This document shows positions 539 to 63,893 of a stretch of DNA of 64,000 nt, one piece after another. The stretch comes from an uncultured delta proteobacterium (lineage in GTDB: Bacteria > Myxococcota_A > Polyangia > Polyangiales > Polyangiaceae). The translations under genes were made by a program, and so were the position numbers. The stretch is taken from the NCBI GenBank assembly GCA_963782055.1, contig CAWAIF010000003.1, forward strand, positions 1,952,001 through 2,016,000. The letters are read 5' to 3'. The notes below the pieces were generated by a model. It made no database searches, was not told the origin of the DNA, and was given only the letters and a program-made list of their open reading frames with translations. How positions within the stretch are numbered: position 1 is the stretch's first letter; every line of letters starts with the position of its first letter.

Positions 539-1774
539 GTGATCACCTTGCTTCGCCTCGTCCGATCGCGCGTCTGCCTGGCGGGACTGCTGCTCCTCGC
601 CGCCGCATGCGCCTCGCATGCGCCGGCCGCGGGCACGGCGGCGATGGCGGCCGCTCCTGGCGCGACGGGCTCGGCCCCCGCCACGGCGCCGCCCGTCGCG
701 CCGTCGCCCGTCGAGCTGGTGGAGTCGGCGCCGGTGGAGACGACGCTCGATCACCCCGAGGTGCCCAACGCGTCCGACGTCTGGGTCCAGATGATCGACG
801 GCGCCCGCCGGTCGCTGGACATCGGCGCCTTCTACATCAGCGACGCGCCGAAGAGCCGCATGCACGCGGTGCTCGAGGCGATCGACCGGGCCGCCGACCG
901 CGGGGTGCACGTGCGGCTGCTGGTCGAGCAGATCTTCTACGCCAGGTACCCCGCGTCGGTGGACGCGCTGGCGCGCCACGCCAACGTGGAGGTGAGGCAC
1001 TTCGACATGTCCAAGACCATGGGCGGCATCCTGCACGCCAAGTACTTCGTGGTGGACCGGCGCGAGGCCTACGTCGGCAGCCAGAACTTCGACTGGCGGT
1101 CGCTGGAGCACATCCAGGAGATGGGCGTGCGGCTGCGCAGCCCTGCGCTCGCCGCGGAGCTGGACAATCTCTTCCAGGCGGACTGGGACGTGATGGGCGG
1201 CGCGCCGCCGTCGCGCTGGAAGCAGGCGTGGCACGGCCCGGTGATCGCGCGCGGACCCGGCGTCACGGTGAGGCTGGGCGAGAGCCCGGACGGCTACCTT
1301 CCCGACCCCTCGCTGAGCGAGCTCTCCGGCCTGGTGCGCTGGATCGACGGAGCGGAGGCGCGCGTGGACGTGCAGGTGCTCACCTACAAGGCGAAGATGC
1401 GCGACGGCTCCCCCTTCACCACGCTGGATGACGCCCTGCGACGGGCGGCTGCGCGCGGGGTGCACGTGCGCCTGCTGGTCTCCAGCTGGGGGGCGAAGGC
1501 GGAGACGCTCCACGCGCTCGCCAGGGTGCCTGGCGTGGAGGTGCGCGTGCTGACGATCCCGAAGTGGTCCGGCGGCGACATCCCCTTCGCGCGCGTGGCC
1601 CACGCCAAGTACGCGCTCTTCGACGACGACAGGGCCTGGGTGGGCACCGGCAACTGGGAGGGGGACTACTTCCTGAAGAGCCGCGACATCAGCGCCTTCG
1701 TGGAGGGGCGCGCCTTCACGGCGGAGCTGCGTCACGTCTTCGAGGACGGCTGGAAGATGGCCGCCCCGAGCTGA
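539..1774 (+). CDS. Phospholipase D superfamily lipoprotein (two HKD motifs; PLD3/K4L-like)
   Basis: HAKYFVVD...YVGSQNFDWRS and HAKYALFD...WVGTGNW motifs; lipobox-like LLLLAAAC. Start is uncertain; GTG 539 chosen. Confidence 0.85.
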   Translation: MITLLRLVRSRVCLAGLLLLAAACASHAPAAGTAAMAAAPGATGSAPATAPPVAPSPVELVESAPVETTLDHPEVPNASDVWVQMIDGARRSLDIGAFYISDAPKSRMHAVLEAIDRAADRGVHVRLLVEQIFYARYPASVDALARHANVEVRHFDMSKTMGGILHAKYFVVDRREAYVGSQNFDWRSLEHIQEMGVRLRSPALAAELDNLFQADWDVMGGAPPSRWKQAWHGPVIARGPGVTVRLGESPDGYLPDPSLSELSGLVRWIDGAEARVDVQVLTYKAKMRDGSPFTTLDDALRRAAARGVHVRLLVSSWGAKAETLHALARVPGVEVRVLTIPKWSGGDIPFARVAHAKYALFDDDRAWVGTGNWEGDYFLKSRDISAFVEGRAFTAELRHVFEDGWKMAAPS

Positions 1775-2269
1775 AGCCGACGCGTCCGGAAATCGCTCCG
1801 TGGCGAACGCGAGGGGCCCCCCCTCACCCGTGGTGGTCGACCTCCGGCAGCGGCTTGCTCCTCAATCGCCCCGTCGCGAACGCGAGCGGCGTCAGCGTCG
1901 GCGTGACGGACCCCGCCAGCGGGAACGCGGCACCGACCACGTTCCTGGGACGGACCTCCATGACGCACGGCCTCTGCGGCTCGACGTGGCTGAAGGCCCA
2001 CGTGGACCCCACCACCACTGGACCGCTCGGCCATCCTGCGGGAGACTGCCCGTAGGGAGAACGAGCGATGAGCCGCCGAGGTCCGCCCCGTGCAGCCCAC
2101 CAGCCTCCCCGATGGCGCGCGCCCGGCGCGCGACATCGAGGGGAGGGGCGCCACGCGCAGGGCCCACGCGCAAGCTCGCGCGCGCGCCGGAGCCCGTGAT
2201 CCTGCACCCACCGATCGGCGCGCGCGCGAGCGAGCATGGGCCCGAGCATGGCGCCTGGAGGGGCCCCCC

Positions 2270-3382
2270 TCACCCCTTCTCCTTGAGCACCTTCTGGATC
2301 ACCGACCAGGCCGCCCCCGCGTCGCTGTTGACGTCGTCCCAACGCCCCGCGAACCGCCCGCAGAAGGAGCTCTTGAGGATCTCCGGGAGCATGCGGCGCT
2401 GATCCCCCTCGAAGAGGGGATGCTTGAGGAATACACATACCTCGTCGGTCGCGCGCACCGAGAGGCTCGCGCGCATCTCGGGGGCGCGGCGCACCGCGGT
2501 GGCGAGCGCCACCACCTCCTCCAGGAGCGCCTTGCCCACCTCGGGGTGGCGCGCGGCGAGCAGCTTGGTCTCCTCCTCCGGAGGCGGGTAGTCCATCTGC
2601 AGCGGCGCGAACCGGTCGAGCTGCGCGGCGTCGATGCCGAAGGTCCCGGAGAACTCCGACCCGCGGTTGATCGCCGCGATGAACTGCACGTTGTCCGGGA
2701 TGGGCAGGAAGGTGTTCTTGATGGGGTGGAAGACGCGGCGGGTGGAGTCGAGCGCGGGCATCAGGGCGTTGCGCGCGCTCTCCTGGCAGCGGTTCAGCTC
2801 GTCCAGGAAGACCAGGTAGCGGCGGCCGGGGTGTTCGCCCGCCTCCTCCAGCGCCACCAGGATGTCCGTCTTGACGAAGTCGGTCACCGGCTGGCCGCCT
2901 TCCCCCGCGCGCACGTGGATGGCGGCGAAGAAGTCGCTCGCGTCGACGACCGCCCCGCAGTTGAAGAAGACGAACTCCATGCCGAGCTGCTTGGCGATCG
3001 TCCGGGCGAGCACCGTCTTGCCGCAGCCCTGCGGGCCGTCCAGCAGGATGTTGAGGCCGCTCTCCAGCGCGACCTGGAGCTTCTTGCCGACGACGGGGTC
3101 GATGTAGACGCCCTCCAGCTTGAACTCCTGCGCCCGCACGAACTCCACCTCGATGGTGCCGCGGTCGTCGCGCTCCGGCTTGGTGACCGCCTTGATCCGC
3201 ACCATGCACGGCACCCCCGGCTGGATGCGCACGTCGTCGCAGAGCACCACCTTGGGGGCGCGCTTGCCGTCCAGGTGCGTCGCGCGGAAGCGGAAGCCGG
3301 AGTCGGTCTGCGGGTTGGTCCAGAAGGTGGTCTCCATCACCGCGCCGAGGGTGACTTCTTCGATGCTGAGCTTTCCGGTCAT
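2270..3382 (-). CDS. MoxR-family AAA+ ATPase
   Basis: Walker A GPQGCGKT, Walker B FLDELNR, FIAAIN, AQLDRF arginine finger, SVR sensor II; directly downstream of a VWA gene. Confidence 0.9.
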   Translation of the reverse strand: MTGKLSIEEVTLGAVMETTFWTNPQTDSGFRFRATHLDGKRAPKVVLCDDVRIQPGVPCMVRIKAVTKPERDDRGTIEVEFVRAQEFKLEGVYIDPVVGKKLQVALESGLNILLDGPQGCGKTVLARTIAKQLGMEFVFFNCGAVVDASDFFAAIHVRAGEGGQPVTDFVKTDILVALEEAGEHPGRRYLVFLDELNRCQESARNALMPALDSTRRVFHPIKNTFLPIPDNVQFIAAINRGSEFSGTFGIDAAQLDRFAPLQMDYPPPEEETKLLAARHPEVGKALLEEVVALATAVRRAPEMRASLSVRATDEVCVFLKHPLFEGDQRRMLPEILKSSFCGRFAGRWDDVNSDAGAAWSVIQKVLKEKG

Positions 3383-40829: not shown

Positions 40830-40869
40830 GCGACGCGTCGGTGCGCGCCTCGTGTAGGATGCGCCCATG

Positions 40870-42906
40870 GTGCGCCGTGAAGAAGCAGGTCGTCCGTCGG
40901 GCATGCCCGACGAACGACCTGCCTCAAGCTGCGCTTCTCCAGCGGGTGAGAGTCCCGCACCGGTAAGCGTCGGAGCGCCGGGTAGCAGGCCCCAGCCGAG
41001 CGGGAGAGATCCCGTCGGCCGAGCGGGGCGTCGAAAGGGTCCACGGACCGAGCGAGCACGCGGGCCGCAACATGAAGTGAAGCTTGCAGCCTCGTCAGAT
41101 CTACAAACCGGGAGCCGAGCCGATCATGTCGCGGCGAAGGCAATATCGGCGGCGCCAGATCCGAAACGCGCCGTCGGTCCCGGCGGGGTAGGGAGCGCAG
41201 CACGCGTGCAAGGAGGAGTGCGGAACTCGGGAGGCCCGTCTGCGTCGCCCTCGTCGGGGCAAGGCGCGTCGTATAAGCCAGAGGCGAAGTCGGCCGCTGC
41301 GCAGCGGGAGTCCGAGGGGGTCACTGTACCGAAGAGCGAGGCGCGAGCTTCGCGAACGAACGCCGTGAAGAACAACGCGGCAGGAGGGAAAGACCCCTGC
41401 AGTGGTCGTGTCGGCGGAGCAGGTAAGCGCGAGGGCATGGCCGGCGAGACCGGTCCCAACCACCCCCATCGGCGACAGCCCATGGACAAAGTGCGACAAC
41501 TGCAACGCCGGCTGTGTGCCGCGGCCAAGCGGCATCCGGAGCGCCGATTCCACGCGCTGTATGACCGCATCGCGAGGCGTGACGTCCTCGCGGAAGCGTG
41601 GAAGCGGGTAAGGAGGAACAAGGGAGCCGCGGGCGTCGATGCCCAGACGATCGCGGCGCTCGAGGTGTACGGAGTGGATCGACTCCTCGGAGAGATCCAT
41701 GACGTGCTCCGTGCAGGCAGGTACCGGCCGGCAGCGGTGCTGCGCCGGTACATCCCGAAGGCCGATGGGAAGAAGCGGCCGCTTGGGATCCCGACGGTCC
41801 GAGACCGGGTGGTGCAGATGGCGACGAAGCTCGTGCTGGAGCCGATCTTCGAGGCGAGCTTTCGCTCGTGCTCGTACGGCTTCCGTATCGGGCGGAGCGC
41901 GACGGACGCCCTGGAGACGCTGAGGAAGCTCGGCGCGAAGGGGTACAACCACGTGCTCGACGCCGACATCCGTGACTACTTCGGGAGCATCGATCACGAC
42001 AAGCTGATGAAGCTCGTCGAGCGGCGCATCTCGGACCGGAGGGTGCTCAAGCTGCTGCGGCAGTGGCTCACGGCGGGGGTGATGGACGAAGGCACGGTGA
42101 CCAACCCCTCCAGCGGCACGCCGCAGGGCGGGGTGATCTCGCCGCTGCTCTCGAACATCTACCTCGCCGTGCTCGACGACGTGTGGACGAAGCGGTGCGC
42201 GCATCTTGGCGAGCTGGTTCGTTATGCGGACGACTTCGTCGTGATGTGCAGGACGAAGCGTGACGTCGACGAGGCCGAGCTTCGCGTGAAGCACGTGATG
42301 ACGCGACTCGGGCTCGAGCTGCACCCGGACAAGACGAGGAAGCTGGACCTCTCCTGGGGTAAGAAGGGGTTCGACTTCCTCGGCTGCCACCTGCGGAAAC
42401 GCTTGAGCGGGTCCATCTGGGAGAGGTCGCGCAAACGCGTGTACTTCCTCCAGCGCTGGCCATCGGCTCGCGCGATGAAGCGGATCCGGCAGCGCGTGAG
42501 GGACCTCACCCCGCGATCACGCTGCCACGCGGACCTGCGCGACGTCGTCGCGCAGCTCAACCCCGTGCTGCGTGGCTGGGGCGAGTACTTTCGCACCGGG
42601 AACGCCGACGTGAAGTTCAACCGACTCGACGAGTACGTGTACGAACGGCTTCGAGCGCTGCGCCTGAAACGGGCCGGCTCGAAGCTCAAGGCCGGACAAG
42701 CCGAGCGCTGGACCCGCGACTACTTCGTCGAAGGCTTCGGGCTCCACCGCCTGCGCGGGACCATCCGCTACCCGGAGGCCGCGTAATGCCGCGTCACGAG
42801 AGACCACCGGTAAGCCGTGTGCGGGAAATCCGCACGCACGGTTTGAGAGGGGGTCTTGACTCCAACCGCCGCCGTAGGGCGGCCAAGGTGTAAGGATCTA
42901 CCAATG
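40870..42906 (+). mobile_element. Group II intron copy 1 (RT-encoding, no endonuclease domain), inserted directly after a host ATG
   Basis: 5' GTGCG; GGTGAGAGTCC domain I motif; domain V AAGCCGTGTGCGGGAAATCCGCACGCACGGTTT at 42812-42844 (AGC triad); domain VI with bulged A42900. Ends defined by the repeat with copy 2. Confidence 0.95.
41482..42786 (+). CDS. ltrA: Group II intron reverse transcriptase/maturase (copy 1)
   Basis: NKGAAGVD, YIPK.DGKKRPLGIPTVRDRVVQ, SYGFR, DADIRDYF, GTPQGGVISPLLSNIYL, RYADD, FDFLG, LNPVLRGWGEYF; no C-terminal HNH. Alternative in-frame starts at 41437 and 40867. Confidence 0.97.
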   Translation: MDKVRQLQRRLCAAAKRHPERRFHALYDRIARRDVLAEAWKRVRRNKGAAGVDAQTIAALEVYGVDRLLGEIHDVLRAGRYRPAAVLRRYIPKADGKKRPLGIPTVRDRVVQMATKLVLEPIFEASFRSCSYGFRIGRSATDALETLRKLGAKGYNHVLDADIRDYFGSIDHDKLMKLVERRISDRRVLKLLRQWLTAGVMDEGTVTNPSSGTPQGGVISPLLSNIYLAVLDDVWTKRCAHLGELVRYADDFVVMCRTKRDVDEAELRVKHVMTRLGLELHPDKTRKLDLSWGKKGFDFLGCHLRKRLSGSIWERSRKRVYFLQRWPSARAMKRIRQRVRDLTPRSRCHADLRDVVAQLNPVLRGWGEYFRTGNADVKFNRLDEYVYERLRALRLKRAGSKLKAGQAERWTRDYFVEGFGLHRLRGTIRYPEAA

Positions 42907-43560
42907 TCGCACTGGGAGCACCGACCCGAGCCGAAGTGGCGTGAGTTCAAGTTCAACCAGCCGTACGCGAAGGGGCTGAAGCGCCTGCGCGAGGAGGTCC
43001 TCGCCAAGACCGACTTCGACCCCGCGACGCTCTGGCAGTGGGGGACGATGCAGGCGATGGCGCTGATCGAGGTGCTCAAGTCCTGCGAGGCGACCTTCGG
43101 CGCGGAGGGGCAGAAGCTGGTGCAGGACGCGCTCCATCGCGTCGGTCAGGACGTCGGCCGGCAGATCCTGGAGGGTGTGGAGATCCCAGACGACCTGACC
43201 GAGACCGAGTTCATCTCCTTCTACGCCACGGTCATCAACCGCATCCCGTACGCCTCGCTGGAGGCGCCGCGCATCGACGCCGAGGGCAAGGCGACCTTCG
43301 ACATCCTCTGGTGCCCGCACCAGGACCACTACGGCGCCTTCGACTGCCGCGTGCAGCGCTACTTCGTGCAGGGGATGATCGACGCCGCGCGCGAGCACGC
43401 CGCGGGCTTCGGCTTCGAGGTGCGCTTTGACACGACGATCCCGTCGGGGTCGCCGACGTGCCACTTCACGATGTGGAAGCCGACGGAGGAGGAGCGCGCC
43501 GCGTGGGAGGGCACGACGAAGCTGATCGAGGACAAGGCGCTCGCCCGCGCGAAGCGGTAG
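42904..43560 (+). CDS. Hypothetical protein, host of intron copy 1 (V4R/ATC-hydrolase-like Cys pattern); pre-insertion ATG at 40867
   Basis: MSHWEHRP...; WCPH...DC......GM...F.TTIPSG...CHF; ATG supplied by the intron 3' end. Confidence 0.8.
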   Translation: MSHWEHRPEPKWREFKFNQPYAKGLKRLREEVLAKTDFDPATLWQWGTMQAMALIEVLKSCEATFGAEGQKLVQDALHRVGQDVGRQILEGVEIPDDLTETEFISFYATVINRIPYASLEAPRIDAEGKATFDILWCPHQDHYGAFDCRVQRYFVQGMIDAAREHAAGFGFEVRFDTTIPSGSPTCHFTMWKPTEEERAAWEGTTKLIEDKALARAKR

Positions 43561-48446: not shown

Positions 48447-50528
48447 GTGAAAGTCACCAGTAGCGTGCTCGTCGTGGCGTTCTTGGCCGCGTTCGGAGCG
48501 GCGGTCGCCTGCGGCGACAGCGGGAACGGTTTCATTCCTGACGGCGGGGATCTGGACGCCACCGCGGGCGACGCCAGCGACGACTCGCCGGGCTTCAACA
48601 ACCAGCCCGACGCCTCGGCGGGCCTGGTGGTCCAGCCGCCCACGGCGACGCTCGTCTACAACGGCTCTCCCGTCACGCAGCAGTTCACCGCGCTGTCGAA
48701 CAACCAGCCGCTCGCCGGCGTGCAGTGGTCGATCGACAACTTCGCGCTGGGCACCATCGACTCCAGCGGCCTGTTCACGGCCTCCGGCACCGTGGGCGGC
48801 ACCGGTCACGTCACCGCGGTCAAGGGCAACGCCAGCGGGTCCGCGACGATCCTGGTGCAGGTGCAGCTCTCGGCGAACCCGGGCAACGTCCCGAGCGGCG
48901 TCATCAGCCAGCTCAAGGGCGGCGGCAGCGCCGACTCGGCCTTCAAGTGGCTCTACCCCTACGACAAGACCCTCTGGCCGCGCGGGCTCACCGGCCCGCT
49001 CCTGCAGTTCGGCGGCTCGGCGATGCAGTACGCGTGGCTGCACGTGGAGACAGCCTCGAAGTCCATCGTCTACGACGGCTACTACGGCGCGGCCAGCCCG
49101 GCGCGGCTGGATCTCTCGAGCGACCCGATCTGGACGACCATCGGCAACTCCGCCGGGCCGAACGACGCGGTCAGCGTCAGCGTCACCAAGATGTCCGGCG
49201 GCCAGGTGACCGGGCCGATCAAGGAGACGTGGACCTTCGCGCAGGGCTCGCTCAAGGGCACCGTCTACTACAACTCGTACGACTCCAAGCTGGGCAACGG
49301 CTACGGCGCGGTGCTCAAGTTCAAGCCCGGCAACGGCAACACCGCGCAGCTCCTGGTGGGCGGCACGAGCAGCAAGTGCACGGTGTGCCACACGGTCAGC
49401 TCCAACGGCAACGTGATGATCGCCGCGAACAGCACGTACGACACCGGCGCCCGTTACGACCTGCAGAACAACGCCGCCCAGAGCCAGGGCCGCAACGACT
49501 ACGTCTACAACTTCCCGGCGCTCAACCCGGACGGCAGCGTCGTCGTCTCCACCACCAGCGACAAGATCGGCGGCATGTGGTCGTCGGCCGCGTCCCACGT
49601 CTACGACGGCTCGGGCGCGCAGATGAACGGCACCGGCTTCGAGTCGCTCGTCTCCTACGCGGCCATGCCGGCGTTCTCGGCCGACGGCAAGCTGCTCGCC
49701 TTCAACAACGAGCACCAGCCCGCGATGAACGGCGCCAGCCCCAACAACGAGATCGACGTCCTCTCCTTCGACCCCAACGCGAAGAAGTTCTCCAACCTGG
49801 TGAAGCTGGTGAGCGACGCCAACGCGAGCAACCTGCTCGGCTGGCCCTCCTTCACGCCCGACGGCAAGCTCGTCGTCTACGACCACCACCAGGGCACCAA
49901 CTCGGAGGGCACCAACTACGGCACCTGGGGCGCGCAGCGCTCGGTGCTGGAGATGGTCGACGTCTCCTCGAAGACCGTCTACCCGATCAACGCTCTCAAC
50001 GGCCTGGATGGCAGCAACCAGCCGTACCTCCCCTTCGGCGCGGACGACGAGAACCGCAACTTCGAGCCGAACGTGCTGCCGCTCGCGGCGGGCGGGTACT
50101 TCTGGGTCGTGTTCACCAGCCGCCGCCAGTACGGCAACACCATCAACTCGGCGGAGACGGGCGCGTACGGCCAGGACATCCGCAAGAAGCTCTGGGTCGC
50201 GGCGATCGACATCAACCCGACGCCTGGCACCGACCCGAGCCACGCGGCCTTCTACCTGCCGGGCCAGGAGGTCACCGCGGGCAACATGCGCGGCTTCTGG
50301 GTGCTCGACCCGTGCAAGCAGAACGGCAACTCGTGCGAGTCCGGCGACGAGTGCTGCGGCGGCTTCTGCCGTCAGGTCGCGGGGCCGGATGGCGGCGTCG
50401 AGAACGTGTGCGTGCCGCCGCCCAACGGCTGCTCGCACGAGTTCGAGAAGTGCACCACCGCGGCCGACTGCTGCGACCCGGGTGATCAGTGCATCAACGG
50501 CTTCTGCGCCATCCCCCCGCCGAAGTGA
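48447..50528 (+). CDS. Lipoprotein with Ig-like domain, TolB/PD40-like propeller and Cys-rich C-terminus
   Basis: SD AGGAGG plus GTG; lipobox AAVAC; PAFSADGK, PSFTPDGK, WVVFTSRRQYGN, KKLWVAAID; C-terminal C..CC..C repeats. Confidence 0.85.
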   Translation: MKVTSSVLVVAFLAAFGAAVACGDSGNGFIPDGGDLDATAGDASDDSPGFNNQPDASAGLVVQPPTATLVYNGSPVTQQFTALSNNQPLAGVQWSIDNFALGTIDSSGLFTASGTVGGTGHVTAVKGNASGSATILVQVQLSANPGNVPSGVISQLKGGGSADSAFKWLYPYDKTLWPRGLTGPLLQFGGSAMQYAWLHVETASKSIVYDGYYGAASPARLDLSSDPIWTTIGNSAGPNDAVSVSVTKMSGGQVTGPIKETWTFAQGSLKGTVYYNSYDSKLGNGYGAVLKFKPGNGNTAQLLVGGTSSKCTVCHTVSSNGNVMIAANSTYDTGARYDLQNNAAQSQGRNDYVYNFPALNPDGSVVVSTTSDKIGGMWSSAASHVYDGSGAQMNGTGFESLVSYAAMPAFSADGKLLAFNNEHQPAMNGASPNNEIDVLSFDPNAKKFSNLVKLVSDANASNLLGWPSFTPDGKLVVYDHHQGTNSEGTNYGTWGAQRSVLEMVDVSSKTVYPINALNGLDGSNQPYLPFGADDENRNFEPNVLPLAAGGYFWVVFTSRRQYGNTINSAETGAYGQDIRKKLWVAAIDINPTPGTDPSHAAFYLPGQEVTAGNMRGFWVLDPCKQNGNSCESGDECCGGFCRQVAGPDGGVENVCVPPPNGCSHEFEKCTTAADCCDPGDQCINGFCAIPPPK

Positions 50529-50591
50529 CGGGGACCCCCTCTCTGGCACACGCTGGCACGCGCCATCCCCCAGCAAGCCCGCACTTCGCGC

Positions 50592-50607
50592 TGGCACGTA
50601 GCCTGCT
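50592..50607 (+). promoter_or_regulatory. Sigma54 (-24/-12) promoter candidate directly upstream of intron copy 2 and its host ATG
   Basis: TGGCACG-TAGC-CTGCT with GG at 50593-50594 and GC at 50605-50606; predicted +1 near 50618, ATG at 50621. Confidence 0.65.
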
Positions 50608-50623
50608 AACGGTCGTGCCCATG

Positions 50624-52660
50624 GTGCGCCGTGAAGAAGCAGGTCGTCCGTCGGGCATGCCCGACGAACGACCTGCCTCAAGCTGCGCTTCTCCAGCGGG
50701 TGAGAGTCCCGCACCGGTAAGCGTCGGAGCGCCGGGTAGCAGGCCCCAGCCGAGCGGGAGAGATCCCGTCGGCCGAGCGGGGCGTCGAAAGGGTCCACGG
50801 ACCGAGCGAGCACGCGGGCCGCAACATGAAGTGAAGCTTGCAGCCTCGTCAGATCTACAAACCGGGAGCCGAGCCGATCATGTCGCGGCGAAGGCAATAT
50901 CGGCGGCGCCAGATCCGAAACGCGCCGTCGGTCCCGGCGGGGTAGGGAGCGCAGCACGCGTGCAAGGAGGAGTGCGGAACTCGGGAGGCCCGTCTGCGTC
51001 GCCCTCGTCGGGGCAAGGCGCGTCGTATAAGCCAGAGGCGAAGTCGGCCGCTGCGCAGCGGGAGTCCGAGGGGGTCACTGTACCGAAGAGCGAGGCGCGA
51101 GCTTCGCGAACGAACGCCGTGAAGAACAACGCGGCAGGAGGGAAAGACCCCTGCAGTGGTCGTGTCGGCGGAGCAGGTAAGCGCGAGGGCATGGCCGGCG
51201 AGACCGGTCCCAACCACCCCCATCGGCGACAGCCCATGGACAAAGTGCGACAACTGCAACGCCGGCTGTGTGCCGCGGCCAAGCGGCATCCGGAGCGCCG
51301 ATTCCACGCGCTGTATGACCGCATCGCGAGGCGTGACGTCCTCGCGGAAGCGTGGAAGCGGGTAAGGAGGAACAAGGGAGCCGCGGGCGTCGATGCCCAG
51401 ACGATCGCGGCGCTCGAGGTGTACGGAGTGGATCGACTCCTCGGAGAGATCCATGACGTGCTCCGTGCAGGCAGGTACCGGCCGGCAGCGGTGCTGCGCC
51501 GGTACATCCCGAAGGCCGATGGGAAGAAGCGGCCGCTTGGGATCCCGACGGTCCGAGACCGGGTGGTGCAGATGGCGACGAAGCTCGTGCTGGAGCCGAT
51601 CTTCGAGGCGAGCTTTCGCTCGTGCTCGTACGGCTTCCGTATCGGGCGGAGCGCGACGGACGCCCTGGAGACGCTGAGGAAGCTCGGCGCGAAGGGGTAC
51701 AACCACGTGCTCGACGCCGACATCCGTGACTACTTCGGGAGCATCGATCACGACAAGCTGATGAAGCTCGTCGAGCGGCGCATCTCGGACCGGAGGGTGC
51801 TCAAGCTGCTGCGGCAGTGGCTCACGGCGGGGGTGATGGACGAAGGCACGGTGACCAACCCCTCCAGCGGCACGCCGCAGGGCGGGGTGATCTCGCCGCT
51901 GCTCTCGAACATCTACCTCGCCGTGCTCGACGACGTGTGGACGAAGCGGTGCGCGCATCTTGGCGAGCTGGTTCGTTATGCGGACGACTTCGTCGTGATG
52001 TGCAGGACGAAGCGTGACGTCGACGAGGCCGAGCTTCGCGTGAAGCACGTGATGACGCGACTCGGGCTCGAGCTGCACCCGGACAAGACGAGGAAGCTGG
52101 ACCTCTCCTGGGGTAAGAAGGGGTTCGACTTCCTCGGCTGCCACCTGCGGAAACGCTTGAGCGGGTCCATCTGGGAGAGGTCGCGCAAACGCGTGTACTT
52201 CCTCCAGCGCTGGCCATCGGCTCGCGCGATGAAGCGGATCCGGCAGCGCGTGAGGGACCTCACCCCGCGATCACGCTGCCACGCGGACCTGCGCGACGTC
52301 GTCGCGCAGCTCAACCCCGTGCTGCGTGGCTGGGGCGAGTACTTTCGCACCGGGAACGCCGACGTGAAGTTCAACCGACTCGACGAGTACGTGTACGAAC
52401 GGCTTCGAGCGCTGCGCCTGAAACGGGCCGGCTCGAAGCTCAAGGCCGGACAAGCCGAGCGCTGGACCCGCGACTACTTCGTCGAAGGCTTCGGGCTCCA
52501 CCGCCTGCGCGGGACCATCCGCTACCCGGAGGCCGCGTAATGCCGCGTCACGAGAGACCACCGGTAAGCCGTGTGCGGGAAATCCGCACGCACGGTTTGA
52601 GAGGGGGTCTTGACTCCAACCGCCGCCGTAGGGCGGCCAAGGTGTAAGGATCTACCAATG
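50624..52660 (+). mobile_element. Group II intron copy 2, direct repeat of 40870-42906 (offset 9,754)
   Basis: Same 5' GTGCG, domain V (52566-52598), domain VI and 3' CTACCAATG; ORF-track translations match copy 1. Confidence 0.95.
51236..52540 (+). CDS. ltrA: Group II intron reverse transcriptase/maturase (copy 2)
   Basis: Translation identical to copy 1 (YADD, PQG, maturase X domain). Confidence 0.97.
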   Translation: MDKVRQLQRRLCAAAKRHPERRFHALYDRIARRDVLAEAWKRVRRNKGAAGVDAQTIAALEVYGVDRLLGEIHDVLRAGRYRPAAVLRRYIPKADGKKRPLGIPTVRDRVVQMATKLVLEPIFEASFRSCSYGFRIGRSATDALETLRKLGAKGYNHVLDADIRDYFGSIDHDKLMKLVERRISDRRVLKLLRQWLTAGVMDEGTVTNPSSGTPQGGVISPLLSNIYLAVLDDVWTKRCAHLGELVRYADDFVVMCRTKRDVDEAELRVKHVMTRLGLELHPDKTRKLDLSWGKKGFDFLGCHLRKRLSGSIWERSRKRVYFLQRWPSARAMKRIRQRVRDLTPRSRCHADLRDVVAQLNPVLRGWGEYFRTGNADVKFNRLDEYVYERLRALRLKRAGSKLKAGQAERWTRDYFVEGFGLHRLRGTIRYPEAA

Positions 52661-63820: not shown

Positions 63821-63893
63821 GGGGCCGTAGCTCAGCTGGGAGAGCGCATCCATGGCATGGATGAGGTCAGGGGTTCGATCCCCCTCGGCTCCA
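63821..63893 (+). tRNA. tRNA-Ala (GGC)
   Basis: Acceptor stem GGGGCCG/CGGCTCC with G3:U70; D-arm GCTCAGCTGGGAGAGC; anticodon stem CATCC/GGATG with loop ATGGCAT; T-loop TTCGATC. CCA is not encoded. TAGATT -10-like hexamer at 63792. Confidence 0.97.

Follow-up and report, generated by a model that had tools for sequence, protein, structure and literature searches.

Why should the start codon of a host gene open a reading frame that runs without a stop through the catalytic domains of a group II intron and into its reverse transcriptase (RT)? This arrangement is found in the window analyzed here, a stretch of 64,000 nucleotides (nt) from an uncultured delta proteobacterium of the Polyangiaceae (contig CAWAIF010000003.1), in which an intron sits immediately behind an ATG at 40867. 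The answer that we favor, with a probability of roughly 0.7, is that the intron belongs to a lineage that inserts between the start codon and the second codon of its host genes and that borrows the host promoter and start codon for RT synthesis. The position of the intron, the pairing of its guide with the start codon, the conservation of frame and phase, the covariation of its RNA and a spare ATG at its 3' end can be read directly in the alignments and carry the argument.

The open reading frame (ORF) listing of the window contains a 639-residue ORF at 40867..42786 (+ strand) that starts at the host ATG, whose product begins MVRREEAGRPSG and continues into the RT, as an earlier sequence-only reading of this DNA had claimed. 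Over 40867-41484, the 204 codons upstream of the RT, a script count gives no stop in frame 0, four in frame 1 (40964, 41078, 41189, 41366) and six in frame 2 (40878, 40947, 40983, 41073, 41274, 41424), which recovers at its exact coordinate each of the ten off-frame stops that the same reading had listed. Its estimate of about 2% for such an outcome by chance is close to the result of shuffling this segment: 87 of 5000 dinucleotide shuffles (1.7%) leave frame 0 without a stop, as do 48 of 5000 mononucleotide shuffles. An open frame in a single copy is only mildly unusual by this measure, suggestive and not decisive alone. The second copy of the intron in the window is identical to the first, with its ATG at 50621, and its frame extends further upstream by happenstance (ORF 50489..52540). 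The parts of the element, with domains I, II, III, V and VI abbreviated as DI, DII, DIII, DV and DVI, are as follows.

40870..42906, + strand: group II intron, 2037 nt, GTGCG...CTACCAATG, recognized by Rfam matches and delimited by flank divergence exactly at its ends
50624-52660: copy 2 of the intron, the same 2037-nt element
40870..41436, + strand: ribozyme domains I-III and the start of domain IV; frame 0 comprises 189 codons and no stop
To ~41230, ~41231-41312 and ~41316-41398, + strand: DI, DII and DIII, respectively, from the consensus fold
40882..40925, + strand: hypervariable 5'-subterminal hairpin of 44 nt; predicted fold -33.3 kcal/mol, z -7.1
41437..42786, + strand: RT/maturase ORF with RVT_1 and GIIM; stop codon TAA at 42784-42786
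42812..42844, + strand: DV, from the Rfam RF00029 alignment and the fold
42849..42902, + strand: DVI, from the minimum free energy (MFE) fold; its 3' strand ...GGATCTACC is kept in relatives
42907..43560, + strand: host ORF from codon 2, beginning MSHWEHRPEPKW; 78% identical to the orthologue of a congener

Rfam recognizes both copies (RF00029 at 44.3 bits, cut-off 40; RF02003 at 77.1, cut-off 49; RF02005 at 55.8, cut-off 49), with the D1-D4 models placed at 40940-41075 and 41088-41189 and the DV/DVI match at 42810-42907. The 5' end reads GTGCG at 40870 and in 41/41 related loci, in agreement with the group II consensus GUGYG. The 3' end departs from the group II consensus AY (PMC8393795): the element ends ...CCAATG and its relatives A[A/G]TG, the boundary being the end of the insertion. 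This boundary was fixed by flank divergence and an empty site, since the Rfam DV/DVI alignment overran it by one base into copy-specific sequence. In the MFE prediction A42900, the seventh base from the 3' end at 42906, is bulged in DVI and is a candidate branch point, at the distance of 7-8 nt usual for group II introns. On the 639-residue product, Pfam finds RVT_1 at residues 296-509 (1.1e-36) and GIIM at residues 537-605 (1.1e-16) and detects no endonuclease domain; the ORF stops 34 residues past GIIM.

The genome (7.58 Mb, 71.6% GC) holds seven full-length copies of the 2037-nt element at 99.95-100% identity, plus two damaged copies, one interrupted near its 3' end and one rearranged. These nine copies sit in nine different genes, and their flanks are unrelated apart from the start codon and the 3' end: directly before GTGCG stands cATG in eight and cGTG in one, and all eight intact 3' ends read ...GGATCTACCAATG, followed by differing ORF starts, several of which are signal peptides. 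An empty site in a genome of the same genus reads ...gcgcgcATGgcgcactgg, with one ATG and then MAHWEH..., compared with MSHWEH... downstream of the intron here. Because this empty site has a single ATG, the insert is 40870-42906, the start codon that belongs to the host gene is 40867-69, and a second ATG ends the intron. The orthologous intron-free site, together with the pairing described below, bears out the term "host ATG" of the sequence-only reading, and the triplet is, to judge from both, the real start codon of the host gene. Two other placements were ruled out. An intron ending in CTAC, with an exon beginning CAATG, conflicts with the single ATG of the empty site and would need eight unrelated genes all to carry ATGCAATG; an intron starting at the upstream ATG conflicts with the variation of that codon (ATG or GTG), which is independent of the 3' triplet and covaries with the guide.

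We note that the copy behind the GTG start is the rearranged one. Its bases 1-772 and 1338-1392 lie on the + strand (G000:C3:2503251-2504075), and its bases 1387-2037 lie ~14 kb off on the - strand (2517652-2518302), which indicates an internal deletion and an inversion. In the other damaged copy (G000:C3:5377587-5381147, - strand), ~1.5 kb separate the two parts of the intron at about base 2000, and bases 1997-2006 occur on either side of this insert, as if another mobile element had duplicated its target site.

The sequence-only reading had proposed that diverged homologous introns be examined for a stop-free frame with indels in multiples of three, and the comparison bears the proposal out. 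The RT served as query against 301 genomes from the order of the window's organism and 401 from its phylum, further copies were fetched and one Actinomycetota record (Embleya) was added. This yielded 48 loci with 58-100% RT identity; the 5' boundary was found in 41 of them, from 30 genomes (29 from several classes of the window's phylum and the one Actinomycetota record), and the remaining seven (L044, L050, L051, L053, L054, L056, L057) are cut by contig ends or degenerate. In 34/41 loci (23/30 genomes) the distance from GTGCG to the RT is in phase and frame 0 holds no stop. These 34 loci have 12 distinct lengths between 579 and 636 nt, all multiples of three. In an alignment of 34 loci, the indels between in-phase sequences measure 3, 6, 9, 12, 18, 24 or 27 nt; in L070 three short gaps of 1, 4 and 1 nt add up to 6. 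Frames 1 and 2 contain 3-14 stops each in the in-phase loci and 2-14 each across all 41, except for frame 1 of L078, which is its RT frame. A stop occurs in 30 alignment columns of frame 1 and in 37 of frame 2, compared with three of frame 0, which all belong to the out-of-phase L046, L047 and L052 and none of which stems from an in-phase sequence. Within the hairpin at 40882..40925 the sequence is fully replaced among relatives, with indels of 3, 6, 9 and 15 nt, and frame 0 is still stop-free. Other intron lineages in the same GC-rich genomes (<=49% identity) have stop-to-stop frames mostly of ~430-590 residues, with a few of 707, 777 and 837; full-length members of the present lineage have stop-to-stop frames of at least 635 residues.

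The Embleya locus (L071; plasmid record NZ_CP108777.1 of Embleya sp., locus 960-3060) has the same design, with TACGGT, a spacer of 6 nt, ATG and then GTGCG at its 5' end, CTACCAATG at its 3' end and 58% RT identity. With this design present in an actinomycete, the lineage crosses phyla. A Streptomyces record (L072) with 50% RT identity has neither the 5' nor the 3' hallmarks and was left out as a member of a different intron lineage.

An open frame of this kind might also arise as a by-product of GC-richness and a conserved ribozyme, without any selection for translation. Spurious long ORFs abound in a genome of 71.6% GC, and the single copy is open in 1.7% of shuffles, as given above. As a control for ribozyme conservation, we resampled the alignment by drawing each column independently from 20 representatives, in 2000 draws; the representatives are <97% identical and were taken from 29 in-phase sequences, L036 having been dropped for its broken RT. 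The resampled sequences reproduce the off-frame stops, with 5.0 and 7.2 in frames 1 and 2 compared with 5.0 and 6.75 observed. In frame 0 they contain 1.15 stops and are stop-free in 28.6% of draws, so that conserved column make-up alone goes some way toward an open frame, yet all 20 of the real representatives are open. Composition likewise does not account for the 12 lengths that are all multiples of three with triplet indels, for 67 stop columns in the other frames against none for in-phase sequences in frame 0, for the hypervariable 5' hairpin that also stays open, or for the stop-start overlap that two frameshifted relatives have in place of the fusion. We consider this explanation very improbable. 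At the level of sequence, the comparison shows purifying selection on frame and phase from the host start codon into the RT. Because the intron follows a working start codon, the lineage would have kept domains I-III stop-free and in phase with the RT.

What is selected in the 5' extension appears to be RNA rather than peptide. RNAalifold, run on 22 relatives, predicts 149 base pairs, 87 of them with compensatory changes, and resolves DI, DII, DIII and a small hairpin that opens domain IV; the compensatory pairs of the 40882..40925 hairpin occupy alignment columns 13-56. The ribozyme segment of ~570 nt is under two constraints at once, RNA covariation (the 87 compensated pairs) and an open frame of fixed phase. 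Column entropy at codon positions 1, 2 and 3 is 0.58/0.65/0.70 in the extension compared with 0.44/0.38/0.88 in the RT, and GC content at these positions is 0.74/0.69/0.63 compared with 0.67/0.45/0.88; at the third position (GC3) the host ORF from 42907 reaches 0.97. The bases of the extension are probably selected as RNA and for phase and the absence of stops, not for the peptide that they would encode. The converse proposal, that the 190 codons ahead of the RT specify a genuine N-terminal domain of the protein, agrees with an ORF that is continuous and conserved as open. It fits poorly with a region that is covarying ribozyme, shows neither an excess of third-position variation nor a rise in GC3, varies in length by up to 57 nt among relatives and has its first ~15 codons wholly different from one relative to another; Pfam, moreover, matches nothing but RVT_1 and GIIM, neither of which begins before residue 296. 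We give this proposal hardly any weight. On the opposite strand of the 5' hairpin (40881-40944, - strand), a sub-threshold Rfam match to the Pseudomonas small RNA P37 (33.7 bits, gathering threshold 50) was taken as a hairpin look-alike.

The choice of insertion site centers on three short elements, which include exon-binding site 1 (EBS1) of the intron and its partner in the exon, intron-binding site 1 (IBS1).

40867..40869, + strand: host start codon, IBS1 of the intron; the entire 5' exon if the mRNA is leaderless
41125..41128, + strand: EBS1, CAUG in a hairpin loop of domain I, complementary to the C plus AUG of the 5' exon
40855..40860, + strand: TAGGAT, a -10-like hexamer 6 nt before the host ATG, a promoter layout of leaderless type

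In 40/40 loci with a complete triplet before GTGCG, this triplet is a start codon (ATG in 35, GTG in 5). The EBS1 loop, CA(U/C)N, forms all four pairs with the start codon and the base preceding it in 36/38 evaluable loci. The exon base at -4 covaries with the fourth base of EBS1 (C:G, G:U/C, A:U, U:A), with 0 of 10000 shuffles attaining the observed count, and opposite one GTG start the EBS1 reads CACG. We note that CAU is the anticodon of the initiator transfer RNA and that the CAU core of EBS1 is complementary to AUG.

Upstream of the start codon, TANNNT is found at a distance of 5-8 nt, most often 6, in 37/39 related loci with enough flank. Within the window's own genome it occurs at spacers of 5-8 nt in 7/9 copies; of the two copies that lack an exact match, one is copy 2 (upstream of 50621). 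TANNNT at 6-8 nt before the start is the layout typical of leaderless genes. As background we used 426 starts of the same genome that are set by lipoprotein signal peptides; starts defined by an upstream in-frame stop were discarded, since TAA and TAG themselves match TAN at the in-frame spacers 6, 9 and 12. At the 426 starts TANNNT peaks at spacers 6, 7 and 8 (9.9%, 6.1% and 3.8%), compared with <=2.4% at other spacers and at most 1% beyond spacer 9, and a Shine-Dalgarno (SD)-like core is present at 38% of them. Leaderless-type starts seem common in this organism, at about 20% of the 426. The motif is nevertheless enriched at the intron sites, with 7/9 own copies against a background of 19.5% (P ~3e-4). 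These data raise the question of how an intron with a 4-bp guide and no endonuclease domain finds almost only start sites with a -10 box. Identical intron copies occupy sites whose hexamers differ at the three variable bases, so that plain base pairing is not a likely way of sensing the -10 box.

The intron also carries a start codon of its own at its downstream end.

42892..42906, + strand: AAGGA (42892-96, SD-like, in the DVI helix), 7 nt, and ATG as the last three bases of the intron, in frame with host codon 2 (42907)

The equivalent in copy 2 lies at 52646-52660. Across the lineage, CTAC[CT]A[AG]TG stands at the 3' end in 43/48 loci, with ATG in 39 and GTG in 4, and the triplet varies independently of the upstream start codon. 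In 40/43 the triplet leads in frame into an ORF that spans at least 60 codons or reaches the edge of the locus, and in 37/43 a purine-rich SD-like core precedes it by 5-16 nt. A host protein with its native N-terminus could in this manner be made from unspliced RNA.

From this arrangement we infer that transcription is leaderless and that ribosomes translate across the ribozyme, a passage that serves to express the RT, along the following lines. A mobile group II intron lineage would target genes that mostly have a -10 box 6-7 nt before the ATG, the leaderless layout, with its EBS1 loop (CAUN) base-paired to the host start codon. Transcripts would begin at or shortly before the AUG, and ribosomes initiating at this AUG would translate through domains I-III into the RT, which would be made as an N-terminally extended fusion (639 residues here) or, in one sub-lineage, by ATGA coupling. 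The ribozyme would fold and splice once cleared of ribosomes, and the spare 3' AUG would allow synthesis of the host protein from unspliced RNA. For the whole of this picture taken jointly, namely a widespread lineage with leaderless start codons as a fourth target specificity, the -10 box or open promoter being sensed, the RT read from the host AUG through DI-III and a spare start at the 3' end, we would accept about even odds.

Several points weigh against this account. Seven of the 41 loci (L032, L046, L047, L052, L071, L075, L078) break the open in-phase rule, and to that extent the stops and frameshifts that the sequence-only reading had named as counter-evidence do occur; two of the seven keep ATGA coupling and most of the others look damaged. 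L046 and L047, from two genomes, have 2 nt added just after the internal ATG of the intron, and their frame 0 contains a single stop, a TGA that overlaps the RT-frame ATG (GGATGAGG). This stop-start overlap (ATGA) is of a kind that, on its layout, still couples RT translation to frame 0. The RT is broken in L032, which is frameshifted, as it is in L036. In the Embleya locus frame 0 is open for 375 nt and the RT frame is open from +71, as after one recent frameshift; L078 is 1 nt out of phase, with its RT frame open across the entire 604 nt; and L052 and L075 have two in-frame stops each. Beyond these loci, the extension lacks a coding signature, having a GC3 of 0.63 and none of the third-position entropy pattern of the RT, and a 190-residue unconserved N-terminal tail might harm the enzyme. 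The relatives are not phylogenetically independent, so the P values are rough. Soil metatranscriptome contigs (4 sets, two studies) match the intron interior at 99-100% identity; they begin at 40918/40933 and break off at 42837/42852, inside the terminal hairpins. The four sets contain no ends, joints or flanks of the intron, and DNA carry-over is possible. Finally, the RT could start at an internal codon, as in canonical bacterial introns, which are generally described with the RT gene wholly inside domain IV.

41437..41439, + strand: internal ATG, GAGGG[C/A]ATG in a hairpin resembling subdomain IVa (DIVa), in frame with 40867; the canonical candidate RT start

The sequence-only reading had named 41437 and 41482 as positions at which RT initiation, if confined to them, would speak against use of the host ATG. 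The ATG at 41437 is preceded by GAGGG(C/A) in 24/24 sequences displayed, and its hairpin covaries at alignment columns 607-642, although the single-sequence fold is unremarkable (z 0.65); with this codon invariant, internal initiation may coexist with the host start. The methionine at 41482 is not conserved, being replaced by E, T, A, G, R and others in relatives. These observations lend themselves to a different explanation, in which ribosomes cross the ribozyme, the benefit lies in the transit and not in a fusion RT, and the active RT starts at 41437. Transit might avoid premature termination, transcriptional polarity or decay inside the intron; it might unfold DIVa to free the internal AUG at 41437; or it might carry ribosomes to the RT stop, from where they would begin anew, at the 3' SD-ATG, on the host protein. 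Such an explanation would accommodate the invariant internal ATG with its GAGGG in a covarying hairpin, the extension without peptide-level conservation, the ATGA coupling without fusion in L046 and L047, and the spare ATG behind an SD-like stretch. However, phase with the RT would then be needless, as a stop near 41437 would do, and yet 34/41 loci are fused in phase and only two have the stop-start arrangement. Furthermore, the RT of L046 and L047 is not in phase with the invariant internal ATG, so there, at least, this ATG is conserved as RNA structure rather than for initiation. We regard transit without a functional fusion as possible but unlikely, and retain the borrowed host promoter and start codon as the preferred reading.

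In organelles, intron ORFs are known to be fused with the exons upstream of them, a phenomenon termed "core creep" (PMC8393795). The present lineage resembles it in having an ORF joined in frame with the exon upstream of it, in gaining host expression signals and in inserting in phase 0. It differs in being bacterial, in an exon part that consists of the start codon alone, in host genes that look leaderless, in keeping the trait across the lineage in many unrelated genes and in carrying a spare 3' start codon. A second comparison is the IIB1 lineage at initiation and termination codons (Michel 2007, as summarized in PMC12584367), for which that summary gives an endonuclease (En) domain, C-terminal in the RT of EcKTE56.groEL, and an insertion of 300-700 nt; for the groEL introns the same source describes how the insertion rebuilds a working codon, with UAA becoming UAG. 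Here, too, the insertion site is at such a codon, the intron directly following ATG or GTG in 40/40 readable loci. Unlike the IIB1 codon lineage, however, no En domain was found by Pfam on the product, the targets are unrelated genes, and only 567 nt separate the 5' end from the internal ATG, with a 44-nt 5'-subterminal hairpin and DI-III of ordinary length.

Regarding expression, the RT of EcKTE56.groEL is described as starting with an SD sequence and UUG in subdomain IVa, and PMC12584367, the source of this description, makes no mention of exon read-through. The AUG with GAGGG, set in a small hairpin that covaries where domain IV begins, resembles this canonical expression from DIVa. In canonical introns, however, the frame upstream of the DIVa start is closed, whereas here it is open and in phase back to the exon. 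Ll.LtrB is a further case of canonical DIVa expression. As to target choice, group IIC introns insert after transcription terminators (PMC12584367, PMC4424553). The present lineage shares with them a very short IBS1-EBS1 pairing (4 bp here), a generic landmark and many insertion sites per genome. Unlike in group IIC, the landmark is a start codon behind a -10-like box, and the intron lies inside a transcription and translation unit; placement at terminators or hairpins was not what we found, as the nine sites of the own genome and 32 others follow start codons, no systematic scan of the flanks for hairpins having been made. A 2015 review lists three target specificities for bacterial group II introns: homing sites, terminators and attC sites (PMC4424553). 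A full-text literature search returned no description of start-codon or leaderless targeting combined with a read-through ORF, the original account of the IIB1 lineage being known to us only through the later summary.

A ribozyme under this double constraint would be rare and clean evidence of ribosomes that routinely read through a catalytic RNA. Initiation at the host AUG, if it occurs, would show a promoter-less retroelement taking over both transcription and leaderless translation initiation; it would constitute a bacterial counterpart of organellar core creep and offer a natural system for the competition between translation and ribozyme folding. Elsewhere in the window, a transfer RNA gene lies at 63821-63893 (Rfam RF00005, 61 bits).

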